Of a stretch of 58,107 nt of DNA, positions 1,086-25,688 are shown piece by piece. Position numbers and translations under genes: made by a program. The notes below the pieces were generated by a model. It did no database searches, was not told the origin of the DNA, and saw only the letters and a program-made list of their open reading frames with translations. The stretch's first letter is position 1. The number at the start of each line of letters is the position of its first letter. The DNA comes from an uncultured Arcobacter sp. (GTDB lineage Bacteria; Campylobacterota; Campylobacteria; Campylobacterales; Arcobacteraceae), in NCBI GenBank assembly GCA_964445915.1, contig CAYUNC010000001.1:1-58107 (forward strand). Reading direction: 5' to 3'.

Positions 1086-1280
1086 ATGAAAACAGAAATT
1101 TTCGATTTTAAAAGTAATGGATGGGCTGTATATAACAAAGAAAGAGAATTAGAGTATAATTTTTATAATAATCCTAATAGAATTTCTTTCATTGATTTTC
1201 GTAGAAACAATGTTTGCTTCAATATAAGAATTAACAAAACAACTGGAAACTGGGATAATTTTAATAAGATATGTTGTTAA
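1086..1280 (+). CDS. Hypothetical protein
   Basis: ORF with AAGGAG upstream. No recognisable motif. Confidence 0.5.
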   Translation: MKTEIFDFKSNGWAVYNKERELEYNFYNNPNRISFIDFRRNNVCFNIRINKTTGNWDNFNKICC

Positions 1281-2242
1281 TAAGTGATATTCATATAGGA
1301 TTATGGCGTGATGACAAGAAAGGTCATAATTTGATTATGGACCTGTTTAGAGAAATAGCAGATTTATGCATCAAAAAAGATATTAAAAAAATAGCAATTT
1401 TAGGTGATCTATTTAACAATCGTAAGAGTTTAACATCTAATTCAAAAGACACAGCACTAGAAGTAGTGAATATATTGAAAAACTTTGAGTTAATTATTAC
1501 TAGTGGTAATCATGATATATATTATAATAATTCTTATTCACCAAATTGGTTAGAACTTTTTTATTATTACGATAATATTACTGTAGTCGATAAAGAGCCT
1601 TATTTTATAAATGATTGTTGTTTTGTTCCTTGGGGATATCCTATAGACACTATTGAACATAATGGTTATCTTTTTGGTCATTTTGAGATAAATTCTTTTA
1701 TGATGAACGATAGCTTCGAATGTACCAAAGCTAAATTAAATATCAGTGATTTTAAAAAATTTAAACATGTCTATTCAGGACATTTCCATCATCCATCTAC
1801 AAAAAATAATATAACTTATCTTGGAAGTCCTTTTCAGCATAATTTTGGTGATTGTGAAAGTAAAAGAGGATATTACATATTTATCAATGGTAATATTGAA
1901 TTTATCGAGTTTACTTCTGCACCAAAATTTATTATATTAAAACCAGAGGATAATATAGCAAAAGAAAATATAGAAAACAATTTTGTTAAGATGATTTTTA
2001 ACAGTAATAATGTTAATAAGGCAGACAAACTAATTTCATTGATTGAATCTTTTAAACCGCTATCATTAGATATTAAAGTGATTAAGAATGAAACTGTAAA
2101 TCAAAAAATATTAGAAGAGGAGGGAAAAACTAATAAAGAAATTTATATGGAGTTTGTAGAAAAGAATAAACCGGATTATATAGATTATAAGTTAATAGAT
2201 AAAGTGTTTGATTCAATTCTAAAGGATATTAATTTCGTATGA
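1271..2242 (+). CDS. Mre11/SbcD-type nuclease (T4 gp47-like)
   Basis: Phosphoesterase motifs DIHIG, GDLF, GNHD and GHFH. Overlaps the downstream Rad50-like gene by 4 nt, as in the T4 47/46 pair. Confidence 0.85.
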   Translation: MLLISDIHIGLWRDDKKGHNLIMDLFREIADLCIKKDIKKIAILGDLFNNRKSLTSNSKDTALEVVNILKNFELIITSGNHDIYYNNSYSPNWLELFYYYDNITVVDKEPYFINDCCFVPWGYPIDTIEHNGYLFGHFEINSFMMNDSFECTKAKLNISDFKKFKHVYSGHFHHPSTKNNITYLGSPFQHNFGDCESKRGYYIFINGNIEFIEFTSAPKFIILKPEDNIAKENIENNFVKMIFNSNNVNKADKLISLIESFKPLSLDIKVIKNETVNQKILEEEGKTNKEIYMEFVEKNKPDYIDYKLIDKVFDSILKDINFV

Positions 2243-4332
2243 AAATTATAAAAACTACATTTAGTAATTTTTTGTCATTTGGTAAGAAAAAACAGGAGTT
2301 TAATTTATTAAACGGACTGAACCTTGTCTGTGGTATTGTACCAAATAAATCAAGATCAAATTCTGCCGGAAAAAGTAATTTACTTGCATCTATAACTGTG
2401 TCTTTATATGGCAGGGATATAAAAGGAATTAAACAAGATCAATTAATAAACTGGAAAAATAGAAAAAAATGTGAATTAGAAGTCTTTTTTACTAAAAAAG
2501 ATAATAATTATATTATCAGAAGGGGATTTAAACCAAATTATCTGGAAATATATGAGAATGAAAAATTAATTCCTCATCTTCCTAGTATAAAAGACGATCA
2601 ACAGCAAATCAATGAAATAATAGGGATGAACTTTGATACTTTTGTGTCTTTAGTTTTTTTTAATATAAATCATAGCGTTCCATTTATGCGGATGGGATTA
2701 CCTCAGAAAAGATCTATATTAGAAAAAATTTTTGATCTTGAAGTTTTTACAAGAATGTCATCCGAATTAAATAAAAAAATAAATAATATCAATGTTAATA
2801 TAACGGAATACAAAAATAATATAGATGTATTAGAATTTGCGAACAATGGAATAAATGAGAGTAATACTGAATTAATTAAAAAAATCGCCGGTCTACAAAA
2901 GGAAATTATCATAACAGAGGATGATTTAAATTATTTGAAATTAAGTAAAGAATTAATTGATGTTGAAAGTAAAAAATTAGACTTACTTAAGAAACAAGAA
3001 ATATCCAAACAAAATATTGTCAGAAATATTAAGCAATCCATATTGTATATTTCCAATAAAATTAGAAGTATTAATGAAGAAAAAATAAAAACTGAAAAAG
3101 ATCGTGAGAGAATAAAAAATCTGAAAAATAAGTTACCAAGAGAAAATATTGATTATTCTGTTAAAATAACTGAATTAAATAAGAAAAAAGATGAGTTACA
3201 AATAAAAATAGATAATACTGATAAAAAATTAATGGAGTCGAATAGTGAACTTGCAATATTAAGAAATAACCTAAAAACTAAAAATAATTATCTTAATTTT
3301 ATTAAAAATAATAATCAATGTCCAACATGTAATCAGATTATTACAAACAAAGAAAAAATTATTGAGTCAACAGAAGAAGAGATTGGTAATATTAAAAATA
3401 GTATGCATAAATATGAAGATATCATTTATGATCTTAACAATAAATTAAATTTTTTAAAAAATGAAAAAAGTACAGTAGCAGATGATATTAATTTATTCAA
3501 AGAAAAAATTAATTTAATTATTGATATAGAAAAACAACTTGAATATATTGGTGAACCAAAAGAAATTAATAGTTTTGATGTAAAAAGATATGAATCTGCT
3601 TTGATCAAATTAAAAAATATTAAATTAGAAGATTTCAGTGATGACATTAATGAATTAGAACATAAAATAAATTCTATTATTGACAAATCCAAAAAAATTG
3701 AAAAGAAAATAATGGCAAAAGAATATCAGGATAAGATGAAATGTGAATTAGAAGACATGATTAAAAAGAACAAAAAAGATAAGGCAAAAAATGAAATAAA
3801 AATTAAAGATATTGAAAAGAAAATTAAAAAATTAAAAATAGCGAAAGATCATTTTGAATTTATGAAAGAAATGTGTAAAGATGATAAAGTAAAACAATAT
3901 GCTATATCATCACAGATACCTTATATTTCGGAAAGAACTAATGAGTATTTAAGTTATGTTGGACATGATTTTTATATAGAGTTGGATAAATTTATGGAGA
4001 TGAGTATAAAAGGACCTGGATTTTATAATTGTAGTTATAAAAGTTTATGTGGTGGTGAATCTAAGAGTGTCGATATAGCGTTACTTATGGCTTTCCATGA
4101 TATTGCTAGAAAAAGGTCTTCAATAAAAACCGATATTTTAGTTCTTGATGAGTTATTGGATACTTCGGTTGATGCTAAATCATTAGATAAGATAGTTGAT
4201 ATAATACGTAAAAAACAGTTAAATGATAATTTGAAAGTTTTTATTATCTCGCATCGTGATGAAATTGATATTGAATTTGATAATGTTTTTACAGTAATAA
4301 AAGAAGATGGTTATTCTAAATTAAAATATTAA
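2239..4332 (+). CDS. Rad50/SbcC-type ATPase (T4 gp46-like)
   Basis: P-loop NSAGKSN, a long K/E/N-rich coiled coil with a central CPTC zinc hook, signature LCGGESKS and Walker B ILVLDE. Confidence 0.85.
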   Translation: MKIIKTTFSNFLSFGKKKQEFNLLNGLNLVCGIVPNKSRSNSAGKSNLLASITVSLYGRDIKGIKQDQLINWKNRKKCELEVFFTKKDNNYIIRRGFKPNYLEIYENEKLIPHLPSIKDDQQQINEIIGMNFDTFVSLVFFNINHSVPFMRMGLPQKRSILEKIFDLEVFTRMSSELNKKINNINVNITEYKNNIDVLEFANNGINESNTELIKKIAGLQKEIIITEDDLNYLKLSKELIDVESKKLDLLKKQEISKQNIVRNIKQSILYISNKIRSINEEKIKTEKDRERIKNLKNKLPRENIDYSVKITELNKKKDELQIKIDNTDKKLMESNSELAILRNNLKTKNNYLNFIKNNNQCPTCNQIITNKEKIIESTEEEIGNIKNSMHKYEDIIYDLNNKLNFLKNEKSTVADDINLFKEKINLIIDIEKQLEYIGEPKEINSFDVKRYESALIKLKNIKLEDFSDDINELEHKINSIIDKSKKIEKKIMAKEYQDKMKCELEDMIKKNKKDKAKNEIKIKDIEKKIKKLKIAKDHFEFMKEMCKDDKVKQYAISSQIPYISERTNEYLSYVGHDFYIELDKFMEMSIKGPGFYNCSYKSLCGGESKSVDIALLMAFHDIARKRSSIKTDILVLDELLDTSVDAKSLDKIVDIIRKKQLNDNLKVFIISHRDEIDIEFDNVFTVIKEDGYSKLKY

Positions 4333-4455: not shown

Positions 4456-5562
4456 ATGATAGAAGTTATTAATAAAGATTGTATGATAGGATTAAAGGAA
4501 TTATCAGATAATTCTGTTGATAGTGTTGTTACTGATCCACCCTATGGTATGAAATTTATGAACAAAAAATGGGACTATAATGTTCCTGGTATAGAAATGT
4601 GGAAGGAATGTTTAAGAATTTTAAAACCAGGTGGTCATATTTTAGTAGCATGCGGTACAAAAACACAACATAGGATGGCTATTAATATAGAAAATGCTGG
4701 TTTTGAAATAAGAGATTTAATTGCTTGGATATATAGTCAAGGGTTTCCAAAAAACACAAATGTAAGTAAAAAAATTACTAAAAATATGAATCAAAATAAG
4801 GCAAGACAATGGGAAGGATGGGGAACTGCGTTAAAACCTGCATTAGAATTATGGACTTTAGCTAGAAAACCATTATCAGAAAAAACAATTGCTGATAATA
4901 TATTAAAATGGGGTACTGGTGGATTAAATATTGATAAGACCAGAGTTCCAGTAAATGAAAAACTTGATAGTGAAGAAAACTTGAAAACTAGCGATGTTGT
5001 TCTGTCTTCTAAAAAAGGTAGGTATCCATCTAATGTTATTCATGATGGATCCGATGACGTGTTTGGACTATTTCCTAAAACAAAAAAAGGATGGGGAAAA
5101 AACACAACTGGCATAAAGAAAGGATTAGGCTCAATATTTGGTATAGGTGGGTATAGTGAAACAGAAAGATATGATTCAGGATCAGGATCAGCAGCAAGAT
5201 TCTTTTACTGTGCTAAACCATCTAAAAGTGAAAGAAATATAGGATTAGATGATTTTCCTGAAAAGATAGTTACAGATGGTTCAACAAGAAAAAATAAAAA
5301 AACAGCAGCGAAATATCAGGCAAATTCAGCTAAAAGAAAAAATATTCATCCGACTGTTAAGCCAGTTAAACTAATGAGATATCTATGTAAATTAGTAACA
5401 CCTCCTAATGGTATAGTTGTTGATCCATTTATGGGCAGTGGCAGCACAGGTATAGCTGCGTTAGTAGAAGGTTTTAATTTCATAGGATTTGAAATAGAGA
5501 AAGAATATTTTAATTTAGCTAAAGCTAGAATAGACTATTTAGTATTTCAGTTAGGTAATTGA
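4456..5562 (+). CDS. DNA N6-adenine/N4-cytosine methyltransferase
   Basis: DPPYG near the N-terminus and FMGSGSTG near the C-terminus (beta-class motif order). Preceded by leader copy L1. Confidence 0.85.
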   Translation: MIEVINKDCMIGLKELSDNSVDSVVTDPPYGMKFMNKKWDYNVPGIEMWKECLRILKPGGHILVACGTKTQHRMAINIENAGFEIRDLIAWIYSQGFPKNTNVSKKITKNMNQNKARQWEGWGTALKPALELWTLARKPLSEKTIADNILKWGTGGLNIDKTRVPVNEKLDSEENLKTSDVVLSSKKGRYPSNVIHDGSDDVFGLFPKTKKGWGKNTTGIKKGLGSIFGIGGYSETERYDSGSGSAARFFYCAKPSKSERNIGLDDFPEKIVTDGSTRKNKKTAAKYQANSAKRKNIHPTVKPVKLMRYLCKLVTPPNGIVVDPFMGSGSTGIAALVEGFNFIGFEIEKEYFNLAKARIDYLVFQLGN

Positions 5563-9213: not shown

Positions 9214-9495
9214 TAACACTTATTCAAACTATAATAATAGACACAAACACAAGGGACGTATATACTCACTGTCCGGCTTGTAAGTTTCAGTCTTATTGTA
9301 ACATAGTTGATTAAGTAATTATGAATAACCAGATAAAATTCCTGCTTCGTAGATCACCAAGCATCGTATCCTGTATCTTACAGGTTATGCGTAGACGCCG
9401 GGACACCGGCCAAGGAACTCTCAGTCAGAGGGTACCCCTTGTAGCTTGCAGATGTTTGCAAGAAGCCGCATCACTTTAGTGAGAGCGGAGTGTCA
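9214..9495 (+). ncRNA. 3' body of the second copy of the structured element
   Basis: About 75-80% identical (hand alignment) to 12736..13006. Hairpins are conserved. Confidence 0.5.
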
Positions 9496-9602
9496 CGATA
9501 ATTTCTACTATGTCGGCAAGAATGGTGCAGTCAGAGTCGGCAAAAACATCAGAGAATCAGTATCATTGACAGATTTCTTTAAGAAAAAATTAGGGGGCTA
9601 AT

Positions 9603-12671: not shown

Positions 12672-13006
12672 CCCGTCGCAAACCTCACCACTAAAGTGGT
12701 AGAGGTTAGGAAGCGGACGGAATTAATGTTGTCTCTAACACTTACTATAGTAATAGACACTATATACCCACTGTCTGGCTTGTAAATTTCAGTCTTATTG
12801 TGACATAGTTGGTCAAATAATTTATAAATATGAGTAACCAGGTAAAATTTCTGTTATGTTAAAATTATTAAGCATCGTATCCTGTATCTTACAGGTTATG
12901 AGTAGACGTCAGGACACCGACCAAGGGACCTTTATTCAGAGAACATCCCTTGTAGTTTGCAGATGTTTGCAAGAAACCGCATCACTTTAGTGAGAGCGGA
13001 GTGTCA
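12672..13006 (+). ncRNA. Unclassified structured RNA element, uninterrupted copy (~335 nt)
   Basis: ORF-free. Nested hairpin at 12673..12720, followed by a body alignable to 9212..9495 with compensatory changes. Confidence 0.5.
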
Positions 13007-13041
13007 TGAATATCTTTAATAACAAATAGAGGAGGTGTAGT

Positions 13042-13989: not shown

Positions 13990-15414
13990 ATGACTAAATT
14001 TTCTAAATTTTTAAATGAAGAAGAAAATTTTTTAAAAAGATGGATAGAATATTGTAAAAATATGCCAATGTTAAAGTATGCTGTTGAAATTTTAAAGAAA
14101 ATTGAATCTAAAAAATATCGTGCTTATATTGTTGGTGGTTGTGTACGAGATATTGTTTTAGGTAAAAAACCTAAAGATATTGATATAGCTACTAACTGTC
14201 CTGTAGAAATATTAGAGGATTTATTTAAGGTATATGATATTGGTAAGTCAAGAGATTTTGGTATAGTAACAACTAACTTAGGAGGTTTTTCTTATGAAAT
14301 AGCTCAGTTTCGTCAGGATGGAAATTATACTGATGGCAGAAGACCAGAATCAGTTGAAATTTGTCAATCATTTAAACAAGATGCATCTCGTAGAGATTTT
14401 TGTTTAAATGCAATGGCAATTGACAGTAAAGGCAATATTATTGATTATTTTGATGGTCAACGAGACATTAAAAATAAGATAATAAGAGCTGTTGGCAATC
14501 CACATGATCGATTTGAGGAAGATCGACTTAGAATGTTAAGAGCAATAAGATTTTCATCAAGACTAGGTTTTGATATTGAAAAAGAAACTGCTGCTGCAAT
14601 AAAATTTAATAAAGAGAAAATAAAATCTTTAGCGCCGGAGAGAATAAGAGATGAATTGGTAAAAATGGCATCATCTTCTGGTGATAAATTTGCTGATGCT
14701 ATTTTGAAAATGGATGAACTCGGAATATTGGAAATAATATTACCAGAAGTTGTTAAAATGAAAGATTTTGAACAAAATATTGACCATCATCCAGAAGGTA
14801 ATGTTTTTGATCATGTAATAGCTGCATTAAAAGCAAATAAAATAGCGGATCCGTTACTTAATCTAAGTATACTCTTGCATGATATTGGTAAAATAACAAC
14901 TTATAAATTTGATAAAGAAAAAGGACATACATTTTACGGACATGCTGAGGCTGGAAAAGAGTTAATTGATATTATTGCTAAAAGACTAAGATTATCAAAT
15001 AAAGAAAAAGAAGCATTAATTTTTGTTGCCGTAAATCATATGAAATTACATAAAGCAACAGAAATGAAACCTTCAAAGTTAATTAAAATCATTACAGATG
15101 AAAATTGGGAGTTACTCAAAGCTGCAACTTACTGTGATAAAGCAGCAAGAGGAAAATTATTTGATAAAAAAAGATGGGATGAAATTCTAAGCTACATTGA
15201 TGATATTAAAAATAAATGGGGAAATTCTGTAACTAATAATGCTATTAAGCTAATTGATGGAAATAAAGTCATGAAATTAACCGGGTTGAAACCTGGTAAA
15301 AAAGTTGGTTATATAATTAAACATGTTACCAAAAAAATATTAGATTATGGTATAACTAATGAAAAAGATATCGAAAAAGAAATAATGTCTGCTTATCAGG
15401 ATGTTCTTTTATAA
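13990..15414 (+). CDS. cca: tRNA nucleotidyltransferase (CCA-adding enzyme) with C-terminal HD domain
   Basis: GGCVRD...DIDIAT head domain, RRDF motif and HDIGK HD motif. Preceded by leader L4. Confidence 0.85.
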   Translation: MTKFSKFLNEEENFLKRWIEYCKNMPMLKYAVEILKKIESKKYRAYIVGGCVRDIVLGKKPKDIDIATNCPVEILEDLFKVYDIGKSRDFGIVTTNLGGFSYEIAQFRQDGNYTDGRRPESVEICQSFKQDASRRDFCLNAMAIDSKGNIIDYFDGQRDIKNKIIRAVGNPHDRFEEDRLRMLRAIRFSSRLGFDIEKETAAAIKFNKEKIKSLAPERIRDELVKMASSSGDKFADAILKMDELGILEIILPEVVKMKDFEQNIDHHPEGNVFDHVIAALKANKIADPLLNLSILLHDIGKITTYKFDKEKGHTFYGHAEAGKELIDIIAKRLRLSNKEKEALIFVAVNHMKLHKATEMKPSKLIKIITDENWELLKAATYCDKAARGKLFDKKRWDEILSYIDDIKNKWGNSVTNNAIKLIDGNKVMKLTGLKPGKKVGYIIKHVTKKILDYGITNEKDIEKEIMSAYQDVLL

Positions 15415-15420
15415 TGCTTA

Positions 15421-15439
15421 CATAACAAGTAAATTATTA
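15421..15439 (+). repeat. 19-bp direct repeat, left copy (CATAACAAGTAAATTATTA)
   Basis: Perfect second copy at 16042..16060. Confidence 0.9.
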
Positions 15440-15445
15440 AGGTAA

Positions 15446-15994
15446 ATGAAAAGAATTAAGAAAGTTGCAATAATTCTAAGATTAATTGACAGACTGAGAG
15501 AAAAAGGAAGTTGGTGCGGAGAGATACATATTCAGAATAATATATTCTTTCTTCAGGAACTTATACAGGTTCCTATAGTATTTAAATTCATTTTATACAA
15601 ACGTGGACCTTTCTCATTTGACTTACGGGATGAGCTTACTTCTATTCGAGCAGACGGTCTTATTGAACTCGAACCGCATTACTCCTTTAGTCCAAAAATC
15701 GTTCCAACTAACCAAAGCGAATATATCCAGAAAATATGTTCAAAAACACTTGCCAAGTATGATGATCAAATTTCTTTTGTAGCAAATAATTTTGGAGAGA
15801 AGGATGTGGTAGATCTCAGACATTTGGCTACCGCCCTTTATATCATCAAGAACACAACCTTGGATACCAATATTGAAGAAAGATTTCAGGAACTCACACG
15901 ACTGAAGCCCAACATTGGGCTGGAAAGCGCCAAGACTGTATTTGAGGAAATTTATAAGATTGCCGAAAAGGCAAATATATTTATTAATTATTAA
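15446..15994 (+). CDS. Hypothetical protein, possibly a Panacea/SocA- or YwgA-like domain
   Basis: The segment FILYKRGPFSFDLRDEL...GLIELE resembles those families (from memory only). The gene is flanked by 19-bp perfect direct repeats. Confidence 0.4.
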   Translation: MKRIKKVAIILRLIDRLREKGSWCGEIHIQNNIFFLQELIQVPIVFKFILYKRGPFSFDLRDELTSIRADGLIELEPHYSFSPKIVPTNQSEYIQKICSKTLAKYDDQISFVANNFGEKDVVDLRHLATALYIIKNTTLDTNIEERFQELTRLKPNIGLESAKTVFEEIYKIAEKANIFINY

Positions 15995-16041
15995 TATTCA
16001 GTACGAATTGTTGTTGAATTATGTTTATCATAAAGTTTAAT

Positions 16042-16060
16042 CATAACAAGTAAATTATTA
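16042..16060 (+). repeat. 19-bp direct repeat, right copy
   Basis: Perfect copy of 15421..15439. Together they bracket the gene at 15446..15994. Confidence 0.9.
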
Positions 16061-16121
16061 CTACATATATTAACAAATTAAATTAATTATTTTATAATTA
16101 AAACTGAAGGATAACATTTTA

Positions 16122-16403
16122 ATGGCAAAATATCGAAAAAAACCAGTAATAGTGGAGGCAGTTCAGTGGAAACAAATGGGGGATCATCCTGCTGTGTCAC
16201 CATTTGAAAGTGATAATCCTAGTGTTCTTTGTAAACATTGTTCACATTATTTTAGTGAACATGGTCAATGTTTAACTCTGGAGGGTAAACATATTGTTTG
16301 CCCAGGAGATTGGATAATAACTGGTGTTAAAGGAGAACTTTATCCCTGCAAACCGGATGTTTTTGAAGCAACTTATAGTTCTTTAGATGAAGAGGAAGAC
16401 TAA
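16122..16403 (+). CDS. Small phage protein (KKPVxVEAxQ...GDWIITG...YPCKPDxFExTY type)
   Basis: AAGGA upstream. The motif recurs in many phage ORFans (from memory). Confidence 0.55.
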   Translation: MAKYRKKPVIVEAVQWKQMGDHPAVSPFESDNPSVLCKHCSHYFSEHGQCLTLEGKHIVCPGDWIITGVKGELYPCKPDVFEATYSSLDEEED

Positions 16404-16425
16404 AAATGTTTACAAAGGAGGACTT

Positions 16426-16947
16426 ATGAAAATAAGGTTAAATCCATTTAACCGAAGTGAATTGCGAAAAGCATTTTCTTTTCTACTAAAAAACAGAGAA
16501 ATCTCAGCTGCTCTCGAGAGCGCTGAGTGGTGTTACATTAAGAAGGCTGACGAGGACTTTTTGGAAAGCAAGCCTCCCACGATAAGATCGTGGGAGGGAA
16601 GGAAAGGAAAAACATATAGTGCGACAAGCACTTGGTTTATACATAATGATCAAATCCTCTCTGGCGCCGTTGAAGCACCTGAGGAGATTTGGTCTACATA
16701 CCTGTGCTCCCAATCCCAAAAATGGGGAGAAAGATATATTGATGCTGTGGGACGGCACGGTGTGCCTCTATACATCTTAACATTTCATAAGCATTTCTTC
16801 TCCTGGGAAGGAGATCAGGAAAAGAATGAGAAGTGGATTGAGATCCGAAAGCTCGGTGAAAGTGCTAAGCTTGTTCTCAAGGAGCTTCAGCTCAACAAGG
16901 ACGAGGCTGTCAGACAAGTAATGGTGGCCTTGTCCGAGTTGGACTAA
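16426..16947 (+). CDS. Hypothetical protein (GC-rich island)
   Basis: The internal ATG at 16426 has AAAGGAGG 5 nt upstream and is preferred over the track start at 16387. Confidence 0.55.
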   Translation: MKIRLNPFNRSELRKAFSFLLKNREISAALESAEWCYIKKADEDFLESKPPTIRSWEGRKGKTYSATSTWFIHNDQILSGAVEAPEEIWSTYLCSQSQKWGERYIDAVGRHGVPLYILTFHKHFFSWEGDQEKNEKWIEIRKLGESAKLVLKELQLNKDEAVRQVMVALSELD

Positions 16948-16959
16948 AGGGAGGATTAA

Positions 16960-17655
16960 ATGATGGAGGAAATGAAAATCTATAAGGAGGACGGAAGTGA
17001 GATTCCATCATATCCAATGGAAATGACAATTACAGCAGAGGAAGTTCGGGTAGTTGGTCGGCTAAGGTCGACCGTCTCTGGGCTTAACTATTCTTGGAAG
17101 TCGAACGTGAGAGAAACGATCTCTTCTCGTTCACCATTCCAGCCATTTGTTGACCTTACCTTTTCGGGTGAGGTCATTATAAGGTTTCTGGGGTGGCACA
17201 AACCGCCCGAGGAACTTATTCCTGAACAGTGGGAGAGTTGGAAATTCCTTTCCTGGGGTGGAAGTCTTGTAAATGCTCCCGTCCAGGTCATGGCCCGAGA
17301 AGTTAAGGACAATACTCAAAGACCAGAACGAGAGGCTCTGTTTGAGCTCTGTGAGAAGGCCAGAGAATACCACACCACAGCCTCTATGAACAAGTTGTGG
17401 GCATGGCATCTCTACAGTGAGCATGGAGTTTCTGAAGAGTTTGAAAAGTTAGGCCGCTTTAACTTTCGCCCAATATACTTGGGTGAATATTGTATCTTTT
17501 CCCCAGCGGGGATTCGCTGGGCAGGTTCGGATCACAAGAAGGTAATCTGGTCATGGGATCAGATTACTATATATCCTCTCGACCAAAAAGAAAGTCCACG
17601 AACTTTAGGAGCCAAAAAGTATTGGCTTCTAAAGGCAGAGCCAAAAGTAAAATAG
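16960..17655 (+). CDS. Hypothetical protein (GC-rich island)
   Basis: GGGAGG upstream. No recognisable motif. Confidence 0.55.
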   Translation: MMEEMKIYKEDGSEIPSYPMEMTITAEEVRVVGRLRSTVSGLNYSWKSNVRETISSRSPFQPFVDLTFSGEVIIRFLGWHKPPEELIPEQWESWKFLSWGGSLVNAPVQVMAREVKDNTQRPEREALFELCEKAREYHTTASMNKLWAWHLYSEHGVSEEFEKLGRFNFRPIYLGEYCIFSPAGIRWAGSDHKKVIWSWDQITIYPLDQKESPRTLGAKKYWLLKAEPKVK

Positions 17656-17723
17656 CCGGAATCGTAAGTTCCGGTCATATGAACCACTTTAATTGTTGCT
17701 AATAAATTAGAGGAAAAAATGAA

Positions 17724-19097
17724 ATGATCCGAACGCACGTTATACCTTGCAATCTGTCTAAAACAAAGGACAGCCAGCAGTTCTTTGCAGCCGGAGCATG
17801 GAGGCCATCCACACTCCATTCTTTTTCTTGGATCCCCCAAAAGACTGAACCTAAGATGGTGGCAGTAGAGCTCTGTTGTGGAATGGGAGGGATCAGTATT
17901 GGCCTTCGTTCGCTTGGATTTCGTACTGTGGGAGCATATGACTCTTGGGATCGGGCAGTAAAGATTTATAATCACAATGCGCCTGAGCCTGTTGCAGTCC
18001 AGTGTGACTTGCTGGATGATGCAGGATACAAGAGGGTTGTATCAGAGTGCCGCAAAATAGGCGGAATAGATCTTCTCGCTGCCGGTCCGCCATGCAAGGG
18101 ATTCAGCCAGTTAGTAAATGGCAAGCATCACATGCCTAATCCACATAATCGTGTTCTCGAGGTTATTCCCGAGTATGTCGCCGCCCTAAAACCAGAACGT
18201 GTACTTATTGAGAATGTACCGAATTTGATTCGCCATGCTAAGGGGCAAACTTTTGCTGATTTTATAAGACGGTTGCAAGCGCCGGGTCCTAAATGTCTCA
18301 AATATTACGTGAGCTACCAGATTTACGACGCTGCGTTATTTGGAACTCCACAAGCTCGAAAACGATTGCTAATCCTTGCTGTCAAGGATAGCAGTGAACA
18401 ACTTCCCTCTCCTGGACCTAATCTTAGTTCTCTTTACACTGCCATACGACGTAACGGTAGAATTTCTTCTTTGCTACAGAAATACATGAATATCCTGCAG
18501 GATGATTGGGATGCGAGAATAGTTTCAGCAAGACAGGCTCTCTCTGATATTCCTTCTCTTGATCCTGGTGTAGAGGAAATTCCACGCCCGTATGCATCGG
18601 AGCCTAAGAGCGCCTTTCAGCAAATCATGCGTGTCGGCTCCCCGAAGATGAAGATGTTGGAGAATACAAAAACACCAGCTGTACGAACAGAGACATTAGA
18701 ACGCCTTCGTCATATTCCACCAGGTGGAAATGTGTGTGATATTCCCGAAAAGTATTTAAACGGTCTTTCACGAAGATTTGGATCTGCATACCGACGATTG
18801 CATCCTGATGCTCCGGCGACTACTCTGTCCACAAAATATGATTGTGTCTATCACTTTGCTTTCCATCGTTCGCTATCAGTACGAGAGTACGCACGAATCC
18901 AAGGAATTCCCGATTTCGTGACGTTTCCCGATAAACTTGCCAACAGATGTAACGCTTATGAAATGATAGGCAACTCCGTACCCCCTCTCTTGGTGCGTGC
19001 AGTTATCGGAAATGTATTGGCTTGTGGGAATAGAGATTCGGTGATAGAAATTGGCTCTAGCTCACCTGCTAATAAATTATCAAATGAAAATTATTGA
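17724..19097 (+). CDS. DNA cytosine-5 methyltransferase
   Basis: Motifs CCGMGG (I), GPPCKGFS (IV), ENV (VI), QARKR (VIII) and GNSVPP (X). About 45% GC in two hand-counted 60-nt lines. Confidence 0.85.
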   Translation: MIRTHVIPCNLSKTKDSQQFFAAGAWRPSTLHSFSWIPQKTEPKMVAVELCCGMGGISIGLRSLGFRTVGAYDSWDRAVKIYNHNAPEPVAVQCDLLDDAGYKRVVSECRKIGGIDLLAAGPPCKGFSQLVNGKHHMPNPHNRVLEVIPEYVAALKPERVLIENVPNLIRHAKGQTFADFIRRLQAPGPKCLKYYVSYQIYDAALFGTPQARKRLLILAVKDSSEQLPSPGPNLSSLYTAIRRNGRISSLLQKYMNILQDDWDARIVSARQALSDIPSLDPGVEEIPRPYASEPKSAFQQIMRVGSPKMKMLENTKTPAVRTETLERLRHIPPGGNVCDIPEKYLNGLSRRFGSAYRRLHPDAPATTLSTKYDCVYHFAFHRSLSVREYARIQGIPDFVTFPDKLANRCNAYEMIGNSVPPLLVRAVIGNVLACGNRDSVIEIGSSSPANKLSNENY

Positions 19098-19434
19098 ACT
19101 ATATGAATATAATACCAAGTTTATTAATGGTAAAGCTATCAGTATTGTAAAAATGCCAAAAGTAGTTCACTGTAAAAAAGACAACTATGATGTTTATATA
19201 GGACGTCCATCCAAATGGGGTAATCCATTTATTATTGGTAAAGATGGTGACAGAAAGGAAGTAATAAATAAATATAAAATATGGATATTAAAACAGAGAA
19301 GTTTGTTAGATTCCCTGCCAGAATTAAAAGATAAAATTTTAGGATGTTGGTGTGCTCCAAAAAAATGTCATGGGGATGTATTAGTAGAACTTTACGAAAA
19401 AATAGTTGGAAAAGATAAATTTAGCTTTTTTTAA
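19084..19434 (+). CDS. DUF4326-like protein
   Basis: YIGRPSKWGNPF and GCWCAPKKCHGDVL motifs. The start is uncertain (19051, 19084 or the internal MPKVV). Confidence 0.6.
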   Translation: MKIIELYEYNTKFINGKAISIVKMPKVVHCKKDNYDVYIGRPSKWGNPFIIGKDGDRKEVINKYKIWILKQRSLLDSLPELKDKILGCWCAPKKCHGDVLVELYEKIVGKDKFSFF

Positions 19435-19467
19435 ATAAAAGAATAATAGTTTTTCTGGAGATTTGAT

Positions 19468-19836
19468 TTGGGTAATTATAATGACTTAATTGCCAGCAAA
19501 ATAATGGGATGGAAACTAAAAAGTAGATTTAGTATTGATGGTGAAGAAATTGATTTAGAGAAAGTTAACGAAGGTAAAGATTTATTAACATATTGTTGGT
19601 GTGATTCCAGCAATAAACCAATTTGTTATAGAGACATGTTTAACCCTGTTAGAAATAAAAATCAGTTAGATTATATAAAAGAAAAATTAAGTATAGACAA
19701 CTTAATTTTTTTTTGTATGAACGGTACAACAAAAATAATTATAAAAAGTAATGGTAAAACTTATAAAGCTTTGGATAAAGATATATCCAAAGCTTTTTAT
19801 TTTGCTCTTTTAAAAATTACAAAAAATTATAACTAA
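19468..19836 (+). CDS. Hypothetical protein
   Basis: TTG start after GGAG. Confidence 0.45.
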   Translation: MGNYNDLIASKIMGWKLKSRFSIDGEEIDLEKVNEGKDLLTYCWCDSSNKPICYRDMFNPVRNKNQLDYIKEKLSIDNLIFFCMNGTTKIIIKSNGKTYKALDKDISKAFYFALLKITKNYN

Positions 19837-19869
19837 ATATATAAATTAAAAAAAAGAAGGATAATTTTT

Positions 19870-20721
19870 ATGAAAGAAATTGATGTTTTAGTAATGTCAA
19901 GTAGTCGACCAGCTCTTATACCATATACAATAAATTCATTCAAGCGATTTGTTGACAGTCAATGTCATTGTAAATTAAGATATTTATTACATGAAGATTT
20001 TGTTTTTCCTGAATCTAGTAATGATGTAATAAAATGGGCTGTAAATAGTGGTGTCTTTGATGTTATAGAAAAACATAATCCTAAAATCGGACTAGGTCCT
20101 GCAATGAGTTATATGTTTAAAAAACATATTAGAACAAAATATATGTTTTATTTACAAGATGATTGGGAATTTGAACGTACTGGTATTGATCTAGATCGTA
20201 TTTTGTGGATAATGGATAGACATCCAGAAATAAATCTTATTTTGTTTAACAAGTACAAAAATATGGGTAGTTATGCTGGATTTTCATCAGTACTTCGTGA
20301 ATTTGATGGAATGAAATTAAAGACATACAATGGCTGGTCTTTTATTCCTGGTATATGGAGAATGAATTTTATTAGAAATAAATGGGTTACAAGTAAAGAA
20401 AAACCTGAAGCTTATTTAAATAGTCATCTTGATAAAAAGAATATTGGTATTTATTTTTATGGCGGTGATGGTGAAAATAGATGGGTAAGACATTTAGGAA
20501 ATAGTTTTAGAATGGCCGCTTGGCAGTTAAAAAATGGAAAACCGGGGGGATCACTAAATTACGAGTGTAGAGAAATAGAAACTGGTGGGTATTATAGAGC
20601 GCCTTGGCTTCCAAAAATAAAAGCAAGACCTACTTATATTGGTAGTGGTGATTGGGGTAATGACGTATCAAAAGAAACAATAGAGAAATTAAAAAAAGTT
20701 GGTATAAATAATATTAGATAA
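19870..20721 (+). CDS. Hypothetical protein, possibly GT-A-like glycosyltransferase
   Basis: AAGGA upstream. The YLQDDWEF acidic motif is the only hint. Confidence 0.35.
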   Translation: MKEIDVLVMSSSRPALIPYTINSFKRFVDSQCHCKLRYLLHEDFVFPESSNDVIKWAVNSGVFDVIEKHNPKIGLGPAMSYMFKKHIRTKYMFYLQDDWEFERTGIDLDRILWIMDRHPEINLILFNKYKNMGSYAGFSSVLREFDGMKLKTYNGWSFIPGIWRMNFIRNKWVTSKEKPEAYLNSHLDKKNIGIYFYGGDGENRWVRHLGNSFRMAAWQLKNGKPGGSLNYECREIETGGYYRAPWLPKIKARPTYIGSGDWGNDVSKETIEKLKKVGINNIR

Positions 20722-20846
20722 ATTAAATAAATACTCCGTCATAATGTGTTAGTAAGAGCTTAAATACTAGCTTCAGTATCAACATATTTTATACGGATAA
20801 CAAAAAAATTTAGAGATGTGTTTATTATAAACCATATTTCTAGTAA

Positions 20847-20903
20847 AAAGGAGGGTTGCCGTCTTCTCTCCGGTATAAATACCAGAGTTTTCACGGCATA
20901 TAT
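20847..20903 (+). promoter_or_regulatory. Split-SD leader hairpin L5
   Basis: AAAGGAGG, basal helix TGCCGT/ACGGCA, and loop GGTATAAATACC (contains TATAAATA at 20874..20881). Confidence 0.65.
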
Positions 20904-21887
20904 ATGATGAAATTATTAGTTACTGGTGGTTGTGGTTTTATCGGAACAAATTTTATAAAATATTGGTTTGATTATTATCCAGAAGATACTATAATAAATT
21001 TAGATTTATTAACATATGCTAGTTGTAAAAATAATCATAATGATACTGTTAATGATTATATTTTTGTAGAGGGGGATATATGTAATTACCACTTAGTAAA
21101 AAATTTAGTTAATGTATTTCAACCAGATATAATTATAAATTTTGCAGCTGAATCACACAATGATAGAGCTATAATTAATCCAACAATATTTTACAGAACA
21201 AATGTACTAGGAACACAAAACTTACTGGAGGTCTGTCGAGAAACTAAAATTAGATTTCATCATATTTCTACATGCGAAGTTTATGGAGATATGGAACTGG
21301 ACGCAGATTATAAATTTAATGAAGATCATCCATTAAAACCCAATACTCCTTATAGCTCATCTAAAGCTGCATCTGACTTAGTTGTTTTAGCTTATTACAA
21401 AACTTTTGGTTTACCAATAACTATATCAAGATGTTGTAATAATTATGGTCCATATCAATTTACAGAAAAAATGATACCATTATTCATATACAACTTAATT
21501 AACTACAAAAAAATAGTATTATTCGAAAATAGTAATTATGTACGGGAATGGATACATGTTTTAGACCACTGTACAGCAATAAATACAATAATAAAGAAAG
21601 GAAAAATAGGAGAAGTATATAATATAGGAACAGGAGACGAAAAATCCATAGAAGAAATAGCTGATATATTATTATCTATATTTAATGAAAAAAATGATTT
21701 TAAAGAATATGTTTCTGATCGGTTAGGACATGATAAAAGATATTTATTAGATAGTAATAAAATAAAAAGTTTAGGATGGTCACCTTCAGTTACTTTTGAT
21801 AGTGGAATTAAAAATACTATTATATGGTATTTAAATAGAATTGATTCATGGGAACCATTAATAAAAGATAAAAGCGAAGCATTATAA
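20904..21887 (+). CDS. rfbB: dTDP-glucose 4,6-dehydratase-like
   Basis: GGCGFIG Rossmann motif and YSSSK (YxxxK). Start placed at the ATGATG after leader L5; the track start at 20856 lies inside the hairpin. Confidence 0.8.
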   Translation: MMKLLVTGGCGFIGTNFIKYWFDYYPEDTIINLDLLTYASCKNNHNDTVNDYIFVEGDICNYHLVKNLVNVFQPDIIINFAAESHNDRAIINPTIFYRTNVLGTQNLLEVCRETKIRFHHISTCEVYGDMELDADYKFNEDHPLKPNTPYSSSKAASDLVVLAYYKTFGLPITISRCCNNYGPYQFTEKMIPLFIYNLINYKKIVLFENSNYVREWIHVLDHCTAINTIIKKGKIGEVYNIGTGDEKSIEEIADILLSIFNEKNDFKEYVSDRLGHDKRYLLDSNKIKSLGWSPSVTFDSGIKNTIIWYLNRIDSWEPLIKDKSEAL

Positions 21888-25232: not shown

Positions 25233-25255
25233 AACAATATGGAAAAAACTCAAAT
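25233..25255 (+). repeat. 23-bp direct repeat, left copy (AACAATATGGAAAAAACTCAAAT)
   Basis: Perfect second copy at 25733..25755, exactly 500 bp away. Confidence 0.9.
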
Positions 25256-25688
25256 GAAAACCGTTGCTATTTATCCTATCGTTGCTTGCAACGATAATGG
25301 AGAAGAAGTTTTGTCCGGGTGGAAAGTCAATAACTATACCTTTAAAAAAATAAAATTCAAAGAATCTTACACCCTGACCTTACCGGTCTTAATTGAATCG
25401 GATAGTGCCTATTTGGAGGCGAGATACTCCGATACATGGACATTCCACCGAAAAGGAACAATATATCACGAGGGATGTGATTGTGTTGGCGTAAAACACC
25501 AAGTCACTCCCTGCATCGTTCCTTGTTATATTAATACAAGGGTGGGCCAGGCGAAACTCGAAAAACCTGGTGATTGCGTAAAGGAGTACTGTCCGTATTG
25601 TGGTAAAGATACTCTTGTGGCAATATGGACACAAAAGTCAATAAGAAGTACCATCAAGCCTGTTTTGACAACATACAAACGGAAGTAA
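25239..25688 (+). CDS. Hypothetical Cys-rich protein
   Basis: AAAGGAAA upstream and a CPYCG zinc-ribbon-like motif. Flanked by 23-bp direct repeats. Confidence 0.55.
   Translation: MEKTQMKTVAIYPIVACNDNGEEVLSGWKVNNYTFKKIKFKESYTLTLPVLIESDSAYLEARYSDTWTFHRKGTIYHEGCDCVGVKHQVTPCIVPCYINTRVGQAKLEKPGDCVKEYCPYCGKDTLVAIWTQKSIRSTIKPVLTTYKRK

Follow-up and report, generated by a model that had tools for sequence, protein, structure and literature searches.

A GC-rich island in an AT-rich T4-like phage contig carries a relative of Druantia-like operon methylases

The GC-rich island and its genes

We analyzed a stretch of 58,107 nucleotides, here called the window, which is the entire contig C1 (CAYUNC010000001.1) of a metagenome bin from an uncultured Arcobacter sp. 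(GCA_964445915.1). The analysis is focused on an island of elevated GC content at positions 16,503–19,069 (no strand assigned) and on the C5-cytosine DNA methyltransferase (MTase) encoded in it. The bin consists of 249 contigs with a total of 1.66 Mb at 28.5% GC and is 78% complete. Judged by its genes, the contig is part of the genome of a T4-like myovirus; it encodes nuclease subunits similar to SbcC and SbcD, a recombinase similar to UvsX, a late sigma factor, a tail tube protein, baseplate wedge and hub proteins, a dNMP kinase, a dUTPase, an HNH homing endonuclease and two tRNAs. The island spans three co-oriented, closely spaced genes on the + strand, which are ORF174 (an open reading frame (ORF) of 173 amino acids at 16,426–16,947), ORF231 (16,960–17,655) and the MTase gene (457 amino acids, 17,724–19,097). 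Sequences resembling Shine-Dalgarno sites were found upstream of all three genes alike, including an AAGGAGG box 5 nt before the ATG of ORF174. This agrees with a preliminary description of the locus, made from the sequence alone, which had noted strong ribosome-binding sites for the two upstream ORFs.

Analysis of base composition confirmed a sharp jump at the island. In 500-bp windows along the whole contig, the GC fraction was 0.452–0.466 across 16,501–19,000 and 0.198–0.428 everywhere else. A two-state likelihood fit over 14,000–21,500 placed the bounds at 16,503 and 19,069 (2-log-unit support 16,483–16,515 on the left and 19,041–19,076 on the right), with 45.9% GC inside and a gain of 109 nats relative to a fit that assumes uniform composition without an island. 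The interval 16,450–19,050 has 45.5% GC, as compared to 28.9% for the remaining contig and a mean fraction of 0.284 for the bin (standard deviation 0.024, n = 5,372 windows of 2.6 kb). The GC content at third codon positions (GC3) was 0.466 for ORF174 (z = 4.8), 0.461 for ORF231 (z = 4.8) and 0.376 for the MTase gene (z = 3.3), as compared to 0.182 ± 0.059 for the other 51 ORFs. The tetranucleotide L1 distance of the island to the rest of the contig was 0.642, with a background of 0.213 ± 0.048 and a maximum of 0.379 (n = 101 windows). The island is thus unlike its host replicon in GC, GC3 and tetranucleotides, as expected of a genomic island.

The sliding-window GC and tetranucleotide comparison, which had been proposed in the preliminary description, therefore revealed a strong deviation. 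The island is real but shorter than the suggested 3 kb, with a length of approximately 2.6 kb. A gene of 93 amino acids that had been counted as its first member (ORF93, 16,122–16,403, + strand) is located outside the island, which starts near 16,503 rather than at 16,122; ORF93 has a GC fraction of 0.37 and a GC3 of 0.18, which is the native composition. The left edge of the island falls inside ORF174, of which the first approximately 26 codons are AT-rich, and the right edge falls within the last approximately 17 codons of the MTase ORF. The AT-rich sequence had been thought to resume exactly where the MTase gene overlaps the following DUF4326 gene. It resumes at approximately 19,045–19,069, which is 15–40 bp before the start codon of the DUF4326 gene (19,084) and the MTase stop codon (19,095–19,097).

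Only one other place in the bin is equally rich in GC over 2.6 kb, and it is located on contig C18. A ribosomal RNA origin of this patch was ruled out. The segment (approximately 2,700–4,650 of C18, or 1,225–3,127 of the extracted locus L133; about 50% GC) is instead an element of the IS200/IS605 type with a Y1 transposase (2.7e-42) and a TnpB-like OrfB_IS605 protein, flanked by genes for glycosyltransferases. Within the window, an ORF of 149 amino acids at 25,239–25,688 has a GC fraction of 0.40 and a GC3 of 0.393 (z = 3.6) with no match in Pfam or PHROGs, and is a candidate foreign gene.

The methyltransferase and its relatives in bacterial operons

The identification of a Dcm-type enzyme with all canonical motifs in the preliminary description was borne out. 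The protein matched PF00145 at 1.1e-46 (160 bits, cut-off 22) and TIGR00675 (dcm) with 131.7 bits (cut-off 100.65), and in the defence-system library PADLOC it matched MTase_II at 1.5e-62 and DruM2 at 2e-55. An alignment of 16 sequences showed invariant residues at C51/G53/G55, P122-P123-C124, E163-N164-V165, Q210/R212/R214 and G416-N417-S418-V419-P420-P421, which we take to be motifs I (binding of S-adenosylmethionine), IV (Pro-Cys), VI (ENV), VIII (QxRxR) and X (GNSVPP), respectively. The best matches among solved structures were the catalytic domains of DNMT1 (1e-25), which do not point to a target site. The phage protein and its nearest relative have the N-terminal extension in common, in support of a start at 17,724. 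The start codon is embedded in ATGAAATGA and is overlapped by a mini-ORF of two codons (ATG AAA TGA, 17,719–17,727).

A search of a large protein collection identified 570 relatives at E ≤ 1e-10, the best of which (P0021) is 83% identical; among the 120 matches listed, most of the others show 57–69% identity. Relatives with 53–63% identity were located in 32 genome loci with a GC content of 59–70%, all from metagenome-assembled genomes, with labels from many different bacterial groups, among them Rhodothermales, Phycisphaerales, Planctomycetota, Myxococcota, Gemmatimonadota, Vicinamibacterales and Bryobacterales. A metagenome scan added another 78 loci. Three of these (L045–L047) encode proteins with 86–87% identity to the phage MTase at the protein level and 88.6–89.9% at the nucleotide level, and their GC content of 50–53% is the lowest among the 78 loci. 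No close relative was identified in 50,697 phage records (best match 32.6% identity), nor when two peptide patterns were used to search 2.9 million viral contigs (best match 30%).

The nucleotide homology to L045–L047 covers a core segment on the + strand, which starts at 17,752 or 17,756, extends to 19,045 and ends abruptly on both sides. An independent contig of 3,607 bp (depth 43) from the sequencing run X2 aligned to positions 17,752–19,040 only, with 137 differences and 6 gaps, and its flanks are unlike the window at both ends of the alignment. For the MTase half of the island, close relatives thus occur in unrelated lineages, with homology that ends at the edges, as expected of a genomic island. 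In a quick maximum-likelihood tree the phage MTase is placed beside L045, with end branches of 0.11 for the phage and 0.023 for L045; a careful search was not finished, and the root is unreliable since it falls on a very long outgroup branch.

The gene content of the bacterial loci was conserved. In L045 (965–8,262), the MTase gene is followed by genes for a HhH-GPD glycosylase (263 amino acids; NCBIfam monofunctional DNA glycosylase, 1.2e-34), a DruF-like protein (898 amino acids), a DruL4-like protein (323 amino acids, 1.2e-26) and a DruE4/DruE2-like helicase (3.3e-173), the last of which extends past the end of the locus; all are co-oriented and tightly packed. We searched all 110 loci (32 genome and 78 metagenome loci, L045 included) with the L045 proteins and counted the loci with enough downstream DNA for each partner. 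The glycosylase was found at 77 of 95 loci, DruF at 45 of 56, DruL at 44 of 54 and DruE at 46 of 49. The nearest relatives of the phage enzyme are thus the methylases of Druantia-like operons, and its DruM-like clade is the methylase of a conserved five-gene operon of this kind. At a few loci (in the range L013–L122), a PD-(D/E)XK protein replaces the glycosylase. Type IV Druantia has been defined as DruE, DruF and DruL in the absence of DruM or DruG (PMC8565338). The form of the operon with both a methylase and a glycosylase may represent an undescribed Druantia subtype.

None of these partners is present in the phage. No Druantia partner gene was found in the window. No DruE-like match was obtained among the ORFs of the window, nor in the bin with the L045 DruE fragment as a query. 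Neither DruF with DruL nor DruF with DruG is located beside the phage MTase, and the neighbouring ORF231 and DUF4326 proteins match no PADLOC family. A cognate restriction endonuclease was not found beside the MTase either, as ORF174, ORF231 and the DUF4326 protein have no match to a nuclease family in Pfam, PHROGs, PADLOC or NCBIfam. The 78% complete bin contains no second PF00145 gene.

The phage copy of the MTase is under purifying selection. Compared to L045, nonsynonymous divergence (dN) is 0.071 and synonymous divergence (dS) is 0.343, with a dN/dS ratio of 0.21. We polarised the differences between the two genes with seven outgroups and used the L045 branch as an internal control. On the phage branch, 35 changes were from GC to AT and 2 from AT to GC, as compared to 8 and 3 on the L045 branch, although the inferred number of GC-to-AT changes is inflated since all outgroups are GC-rich. 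The contigs from run X2 displayed the same direction, with 99 places where the window has A or T and the contigs G or C and 24 places with the reverse, summed over the whole 11-kb stretch compared; the 40 differences between the window and X2 that were listed individually are all located in the MTase, on the 3,607-bp contig. GC3 of the MTase gene is 0.60–0.67 in distant relatives, 0.49–0.52 in L045/L046 and 0.376 in the phage. The strongly AT-biased changes, the dN/dS ratio and the conserved motifs show that the phage MTase is a retained and partly ameliorated capture, which is not very recent. The preliminary description had proposed a recent horizontal acquisition. The horizontal origin is strongly supported, and a donor lineage can even be named for the MTase, but the nucleotide difference of approximately 11% to the nearest known relative and the 35:2 drift toward AT mean that the term recent applies only in part.

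ORF174, ORF231 and the surrounding phage genes

The two ORFs in the left half of the island had been described as ORFans, which holds for one of them. No relative of ORF174 was found in a collection of 5.8 billion proteins, in phage records, in the ESM Atlas or in viral contigs, the last of which were searched with a longer reading of 186 amino acids (start at 16,387). ORF231 belongs, as a divergent member, to a small phage family of proteins without a name, with 17 proteins at E ≤ 0.001 including itself in an exhaustive HMMER search of a library of 1.84 billion proteins. Most members have 221–276 amino acids and show 29–44% identity. Its sole close relative (P0002, 87% identity) is located on a contig of 865 bp, and the full-length frame of ORF231 is intact. 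The family alignment contains the motifs GRLxST, LGWH, SWGG, RxER, NH, GLDN, SPDH and HPxP, of which NH, SPDH and HP are missing from ORF231 and its close relative. A search with the single ORF231 protein gave nothing in viral or metagenome contigs. Neither ORF174 nor the ORF231 family had a match in Pfam, PHROGs, NCBIfam, PADLOC or a profile search of the PDB, and in the ESM Atlas a relative of ORF231 matched only hypothetical proteins, with values of at most 0.83. Single-sequence AlphaFold2 models were unusable (mean predicted local distance difference test score, pLDDT, of 35.3 for ORF231 and 33.4 for ORF174).

Relatives of ORF231 were found in three viral loci (L010–L012) from phages with approximately 42% GC, of which L010 and L011 represent the same phage. 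In L012, the relative is located directly after a gene for an N6/N4 DNA methylase, in a cluster that also contains genes for an arginine decarboxylase, a DNA polymerase and three more N6_N4-type methylases, one of them a weak match. In L010 and L011 it has no methylase neighbour. Comparison of L011 (7,959–9,062) with L012 (7,986–9,442) showed 83% nucleotide identity for the ORF231-like gene and 90% for a nearby gene of approximately 95 amino acids, with no other DNA match over the 16.8-kb loci. As only these two genes are shared, they form a small mobile module. In L012, an ORF of 112 amino acids is inserted between the two genes.

No relative of ORF174 or ORF231 was found at any of the 110 MTase loci, which indicates that the two halves of the island differ in history and that the two ORFs are not partners of the MTase. 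The co-occurrence of the three genes, which the preliminary description had suggested for checking, was thus not observed, and its proposal that the two ORFs could be partners of the methylase or an unusual restriction component is not supported: both are missing from these loci, the homology stops at the ends of the MTase gene, and the real partners are the glycosylase, DruF, DruL and DruE. It had also been considered that the two ORFs might be common phage proteins that are never linked to methylases. This was not the case, since both are rare, and one of the two distinct phage contexts of the ORF231 relatives adjoins an N6/N4 methylase.

The island is located in a run of small co-oriented genes, with a gene similar to a CCA-adding enzyme (PolyA_pol and HD domains) on one side and genes for sugar-nucleotide enzymes on the other. 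ORF93, directly to its left, belongs to a common phage family (phrog_419, 9e-30) that was found in 830 phage records by tblastn. The DUF4326 gene to its right (19,084–19,434, + strand; PF14216, 2.5e-28) has native composition, a start that overlaps the end of the MTase gene by 14 nt, and counterparts in 2,331 phage records. Both genes are too widespread to supply information on synteny. No resemblance to the region at the DNA level was found among the phage records, the island is absent from the genomes of the family of the bin (184 genomes examined), and no Rfam match was obtained in 15,400–19,900 at E ≤ 0.1.

Further to the left, ORF182 (15,446–15,994, + strand) is located outside the island and has a raised GC3 of 0.32. 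It resembles the C-terminal, non-macrodomain part of the antitoxin DarG (PADLOC DarG, 1.2e-07; NCBIfam antitoxin_DarG, 2e-06, far below its cut-off), and judging from this similarity it could be a phage antitoxin mimic aimed at a DarT-type defence. A sequence similar to a sigma-70 promoter (TTAACA-17 nt-TATAAT, 16,070–16,098, + strand) matches the consensus at 11 of 12 positions and is a candidate for an early promoter that would serve ORF93 and the genes of the island. It represents a consensus match only, as such sites are in total no more numerous in the window than in shuffled sequence. A GC-rich hairpin with a stem of 6 bp (17,656–17,674, + strand) is located directly 3' of the ORF231 stop codon, with no T-run on the + strand.

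The window also contains a second DNA methylase gene at 4,456–5,562 (PF01555, N6_N4_Mtase, 6e-37) with ordinary composition (27–34% GC in 500-bp windows), so that the phage has two methylases of different classes. At 9,285–9,500 and 12,787–13,010, exact repeat blocks of 15–31 bp with a spacing of 3,502–3,511 bp are located in a non-coding stretch that is locally richer in GC. To the right of the island, a gene of 283 amino acids has a 76% nucleotide match, at 19,874–20,466 of the window, to positions 9,367–9,962 of contig C18 in the same bin. Either this is a surface-sugar gene common to phage and host, or C18 comes from a related phage.

Two pairs of exact direct repeats were observed on the + strand, each present exactly twice in the window. 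The 13-bp repeat TGCTAATAAATTA is located at 17,697–17,709, 14 nt upstream of the MTase start, and at 19,067–19,079, in the AT-rich tail of the MTase ORF. The 19-bp repeat is located at 15,421–15,439, just upstream of ORF182, and at 16,042–16,060, so that the pair brackets this gene. Direct repeats around a single cassette would be the expected trace if a small circle had entered the genome by one crossover. The AT-rich window has many exact 13-mers that recur within 5 kb (225 pairs, most of them in repeated fibre genes), and the 13-bp repeat was for this reason not relied on as proof of insertion. With one mismatch allowed, its pattern has 4 matches as compared to 0.82 expected, a number reached in 1 of 100 shuffles, which is a mild enrichment. 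Entry of the MTase through repeats is thus a lead only. Since both edges of the island fall inside open frames, a phage gene may have been displaced here and have left its remnants as the AT-rich start of ORF174 and the AT-rich end of the MTase ORF.

A study on T4-type phages describes that, in hyperplastic regions, short regulatory repeats recombine and mini-circles are formed (PMC2839356). The locus resembles the shuffling of promoter-early stem-loop (PeSL) cassettes in that study in having non-essential genes in a variable region, single genes bracketed by short exact repeats and a sigma-70-like match. It differs in that the repeats (13 bp and 19 bp, twice each) are much shorter than a cassette of promoter plus terminator. 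In such cassettes, a strong early promoter and a stem-loop terminator are repeated through hyperplastic regions; the elements that might correspond to them here are the single 11/12 promoter match at 16,070, the hairpin without a T-run at 17,656 and the two repeats with two copies each.

Origin and proposed role of the captured methylase

The reading that we favour, with somewhat more than even confidence, is that the island is a mosaic in which the MTase was captured alone from a Druantia-like operon and kept for self-mimicry, and the left cassette came from another source. According to this reading, at least two foreign cassettes would have entered a co-oriented accessory block of an AT-rich T4-like myovirus, downstream of the sigma-70-like match. 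The right cassette would be the MTase gene that heads a bacterial Druantia-like operon, taken without any partner gene and kept by purifying selection while it drifted toward the AT-richness of the phage. The enzyme would methylate the phage DNA at the motif that marks the host DNA in such operons, or in restriction systems with the same site, and the methylated phage genome would then read as self. The left cassette, with the tightly spaced ORF174 and ORF231, would be of different origin and would have no partnership with the MTase. The mosaic structure is supported by the nearest relatives of ORF231, which are proteins of phages with 42% GC, and by the lack of kin of either ORF at the MTase loci. 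Since the relatives of the MTase are attached to a defence operon, keeping the MTase alone is most simply explained as carrying the mark of the host. We infer here that the MTase is active and has such a site, that the operon methylase marks self and that the host of the phage carries such a system.

Several observations weigh against the favoured reading. The best MTase relatives in the family of the bin have only 31–33% identity and were found in 5 of 183 other genomes, and matches to the DruE4 profile were only weak, in 8 of the 184 genomes of the family and none in the 78% complete bin itself. No such operon was thus seen in the family, which means that the evaded system is unseen in the presumed host clade, and that a phage contig was binned together with a genome is weak evidence for the host. 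No relative of the phage that is free of the island was close enough among the phage records, the viral contigs and the 184 genomes of the family, so the order and number of the insertion events are inferred only. The AT drift on the phage branch is overstated by the GC-rich outgroups, as mentioned above. T4 replaces cytosine in its DNA, and if this phage did the same, a C5-methylase would be left with no substrate. In the parts of the literature available to us, no experiment was found that shows self-marking by the methylase of Druantia type II or of the five-gene operon. Druantia type II is named in a review as one of the systems with a methylase that are discussed under generalised restriction-modification (PMC10273834).

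The main rival explanation is that the MTase is a generic anti-restriction orphan methylase, which protects against Type II enzymes with the same site and for which the Druantia-like origin is incidental. We consider this possible but doubtful as the full explanation, and it is compatible with self-mimicry. Orphan methylases of bacterial origin are well known in phages, and such a role is consistent with the slightly better PADLOC match to MTase_II than to DruM2, with the second methylase of native composition in the phage at 4,456–5,562 and with the lack of any Druantia-type operon in the presumed host family. However, the whole clade of the phage copy is linked to the operon, with DruE at 46 of the 49 informative loci, and the nearest full-length relative is located in such an operon, so that selective pressure would come most directly from the operon. 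It is also conceivable that the island is neutral passenger DNA that was carried into a hyperplastic region and does not benefit the phage. Gain and loss of non-essential genes of unknown function in such regions have been described for T4-like phages (PMC2839356), and ORF231 lacks the conserved His/Asp motifs of its family. Yet the MTase has retained its full frame and motif residues at a dN/dS of 0.21 despite the 35:2 AT-biased drift, and the full-length frame of ORF231 is retained at 87% identity to its one close relative, so that we regard neutral carriage as unlikely.

The three genes are co-oriented, closely spaced and elevated in GC throughout, which would fit a single functional unit, either a module for defence or anti-restriction or a restriction-modification system of an unusual kind, and the ORF231 relative in L012 adjoins an N6/N4 methylase in a methylase-rich cluster. 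This explanation is largely refuted and very improbable given that the genes do not co-occur at the 110 MTase loci, that homology ends at the ends of the MTase gene, that GC3 of the two halves is unequal (0.46–0.47 versus 0.38), that the ORF231 relative in L010/L011 has no methylase neighbour and that neither ORF matches a nuclease or defence family. A chimeric assembly, in which reads from an organism richer in GC became part of the phage contig, is hardly credible. The contig does come from a metagenome bin, the two sequencing runs with matching reads hold fractions of only 0.09 and 0.06 of the stretch, and neither covers 16,404–17,504, which leaves the left junction and ORF174/ORF231 without cover. 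However, the sequence on both sides of the island belongs to one phage and keeps the same strand, open reading frames are kept at both junctions, and a 159-bp unitig identical to the window spans the right junction in run X1, which is possibly the source sample. The AT-biased divergence of the MTase from all its relatives, moreover, shows residence in an AT-rich genome.

The captured MTase resembles several known systems in part. It is similar to DruM of Druantia type II, as seen from the DruM2 match, and the operons of its relatives contain proteins similar to DruF, DruL4 and DruE4/E2, as in type IV. It differs from both types in that the phage has the methylase alone, with no DruE, DruF, DruL or DruG, and the bacterial operon is a hybrid that differs from type IV in having a methylase and a HhH-GPD glycosylase before DruF, DruL and DruE. 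The phage gene is similar to the orphan methyltransferases that phages have acquired from restriction-modification systems, since it stands alone with no cognate nuclease, is of bacterial ancestry and presumably protects phage DNA; in contrast to these, its source is a helicase-based Druantia-like operon rather than a classical Type II pair. According to a preprint, the phage gene Druad1 has been proposed to enable escape from Druantia type I through altered N6-methyladenine (m6A) in the phage's own DNA (10.1101/2024.04.14.589459). Evasion through methylation is common to both cases, whereas Druad1 has 44 amino acids, contains no methylase domain and acts on type I, and the gene studied here encodes a full C5-methylase homologous to the enzyme of the operon itself. 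Phage orphan methylases are thus well known, and the new element is that the methylase of a Druantia-like operon has a copy in a phage, of which no report was found in open-access papers and bioRxiv.

It is still being worked out how Druantia recognizes phage DNA, with recent work on types I and III. That a phage keeps only the methylase of the operon, and does so under purifying selection, is evidence from nature for the importance of the mark, and the question of self-marking can be tested directly with the phage methylase. The MTase also illustrates capture and amelioration cleanly, since the donor lineage can be named, the junctions are sharp and the AT drift is measurable, and its relatives reveal a widespread five-gene operon (C5 methylase, HhH-GPD glycosylase, DruF, DruL and DruE) that fits neither the published type II nor type IV. 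More tentatively, and with less confidence than we place in the mosaic origin and self-mimicry, the phage may have stolen the self-marking methylase of a Druantia-like operon as a counter-defence. If this is true, the block would be an anti-defence island with new inhibitor families, comprising the DarG-C-terminal-like ORF182, ORF174, the degenerate ORF231, the MTase and the DUF4326 protein. Methylase-bearing Druantia systems would then tell self from phage by 5-methylcytosine, and the phage gene would be a reagent with which to test it.

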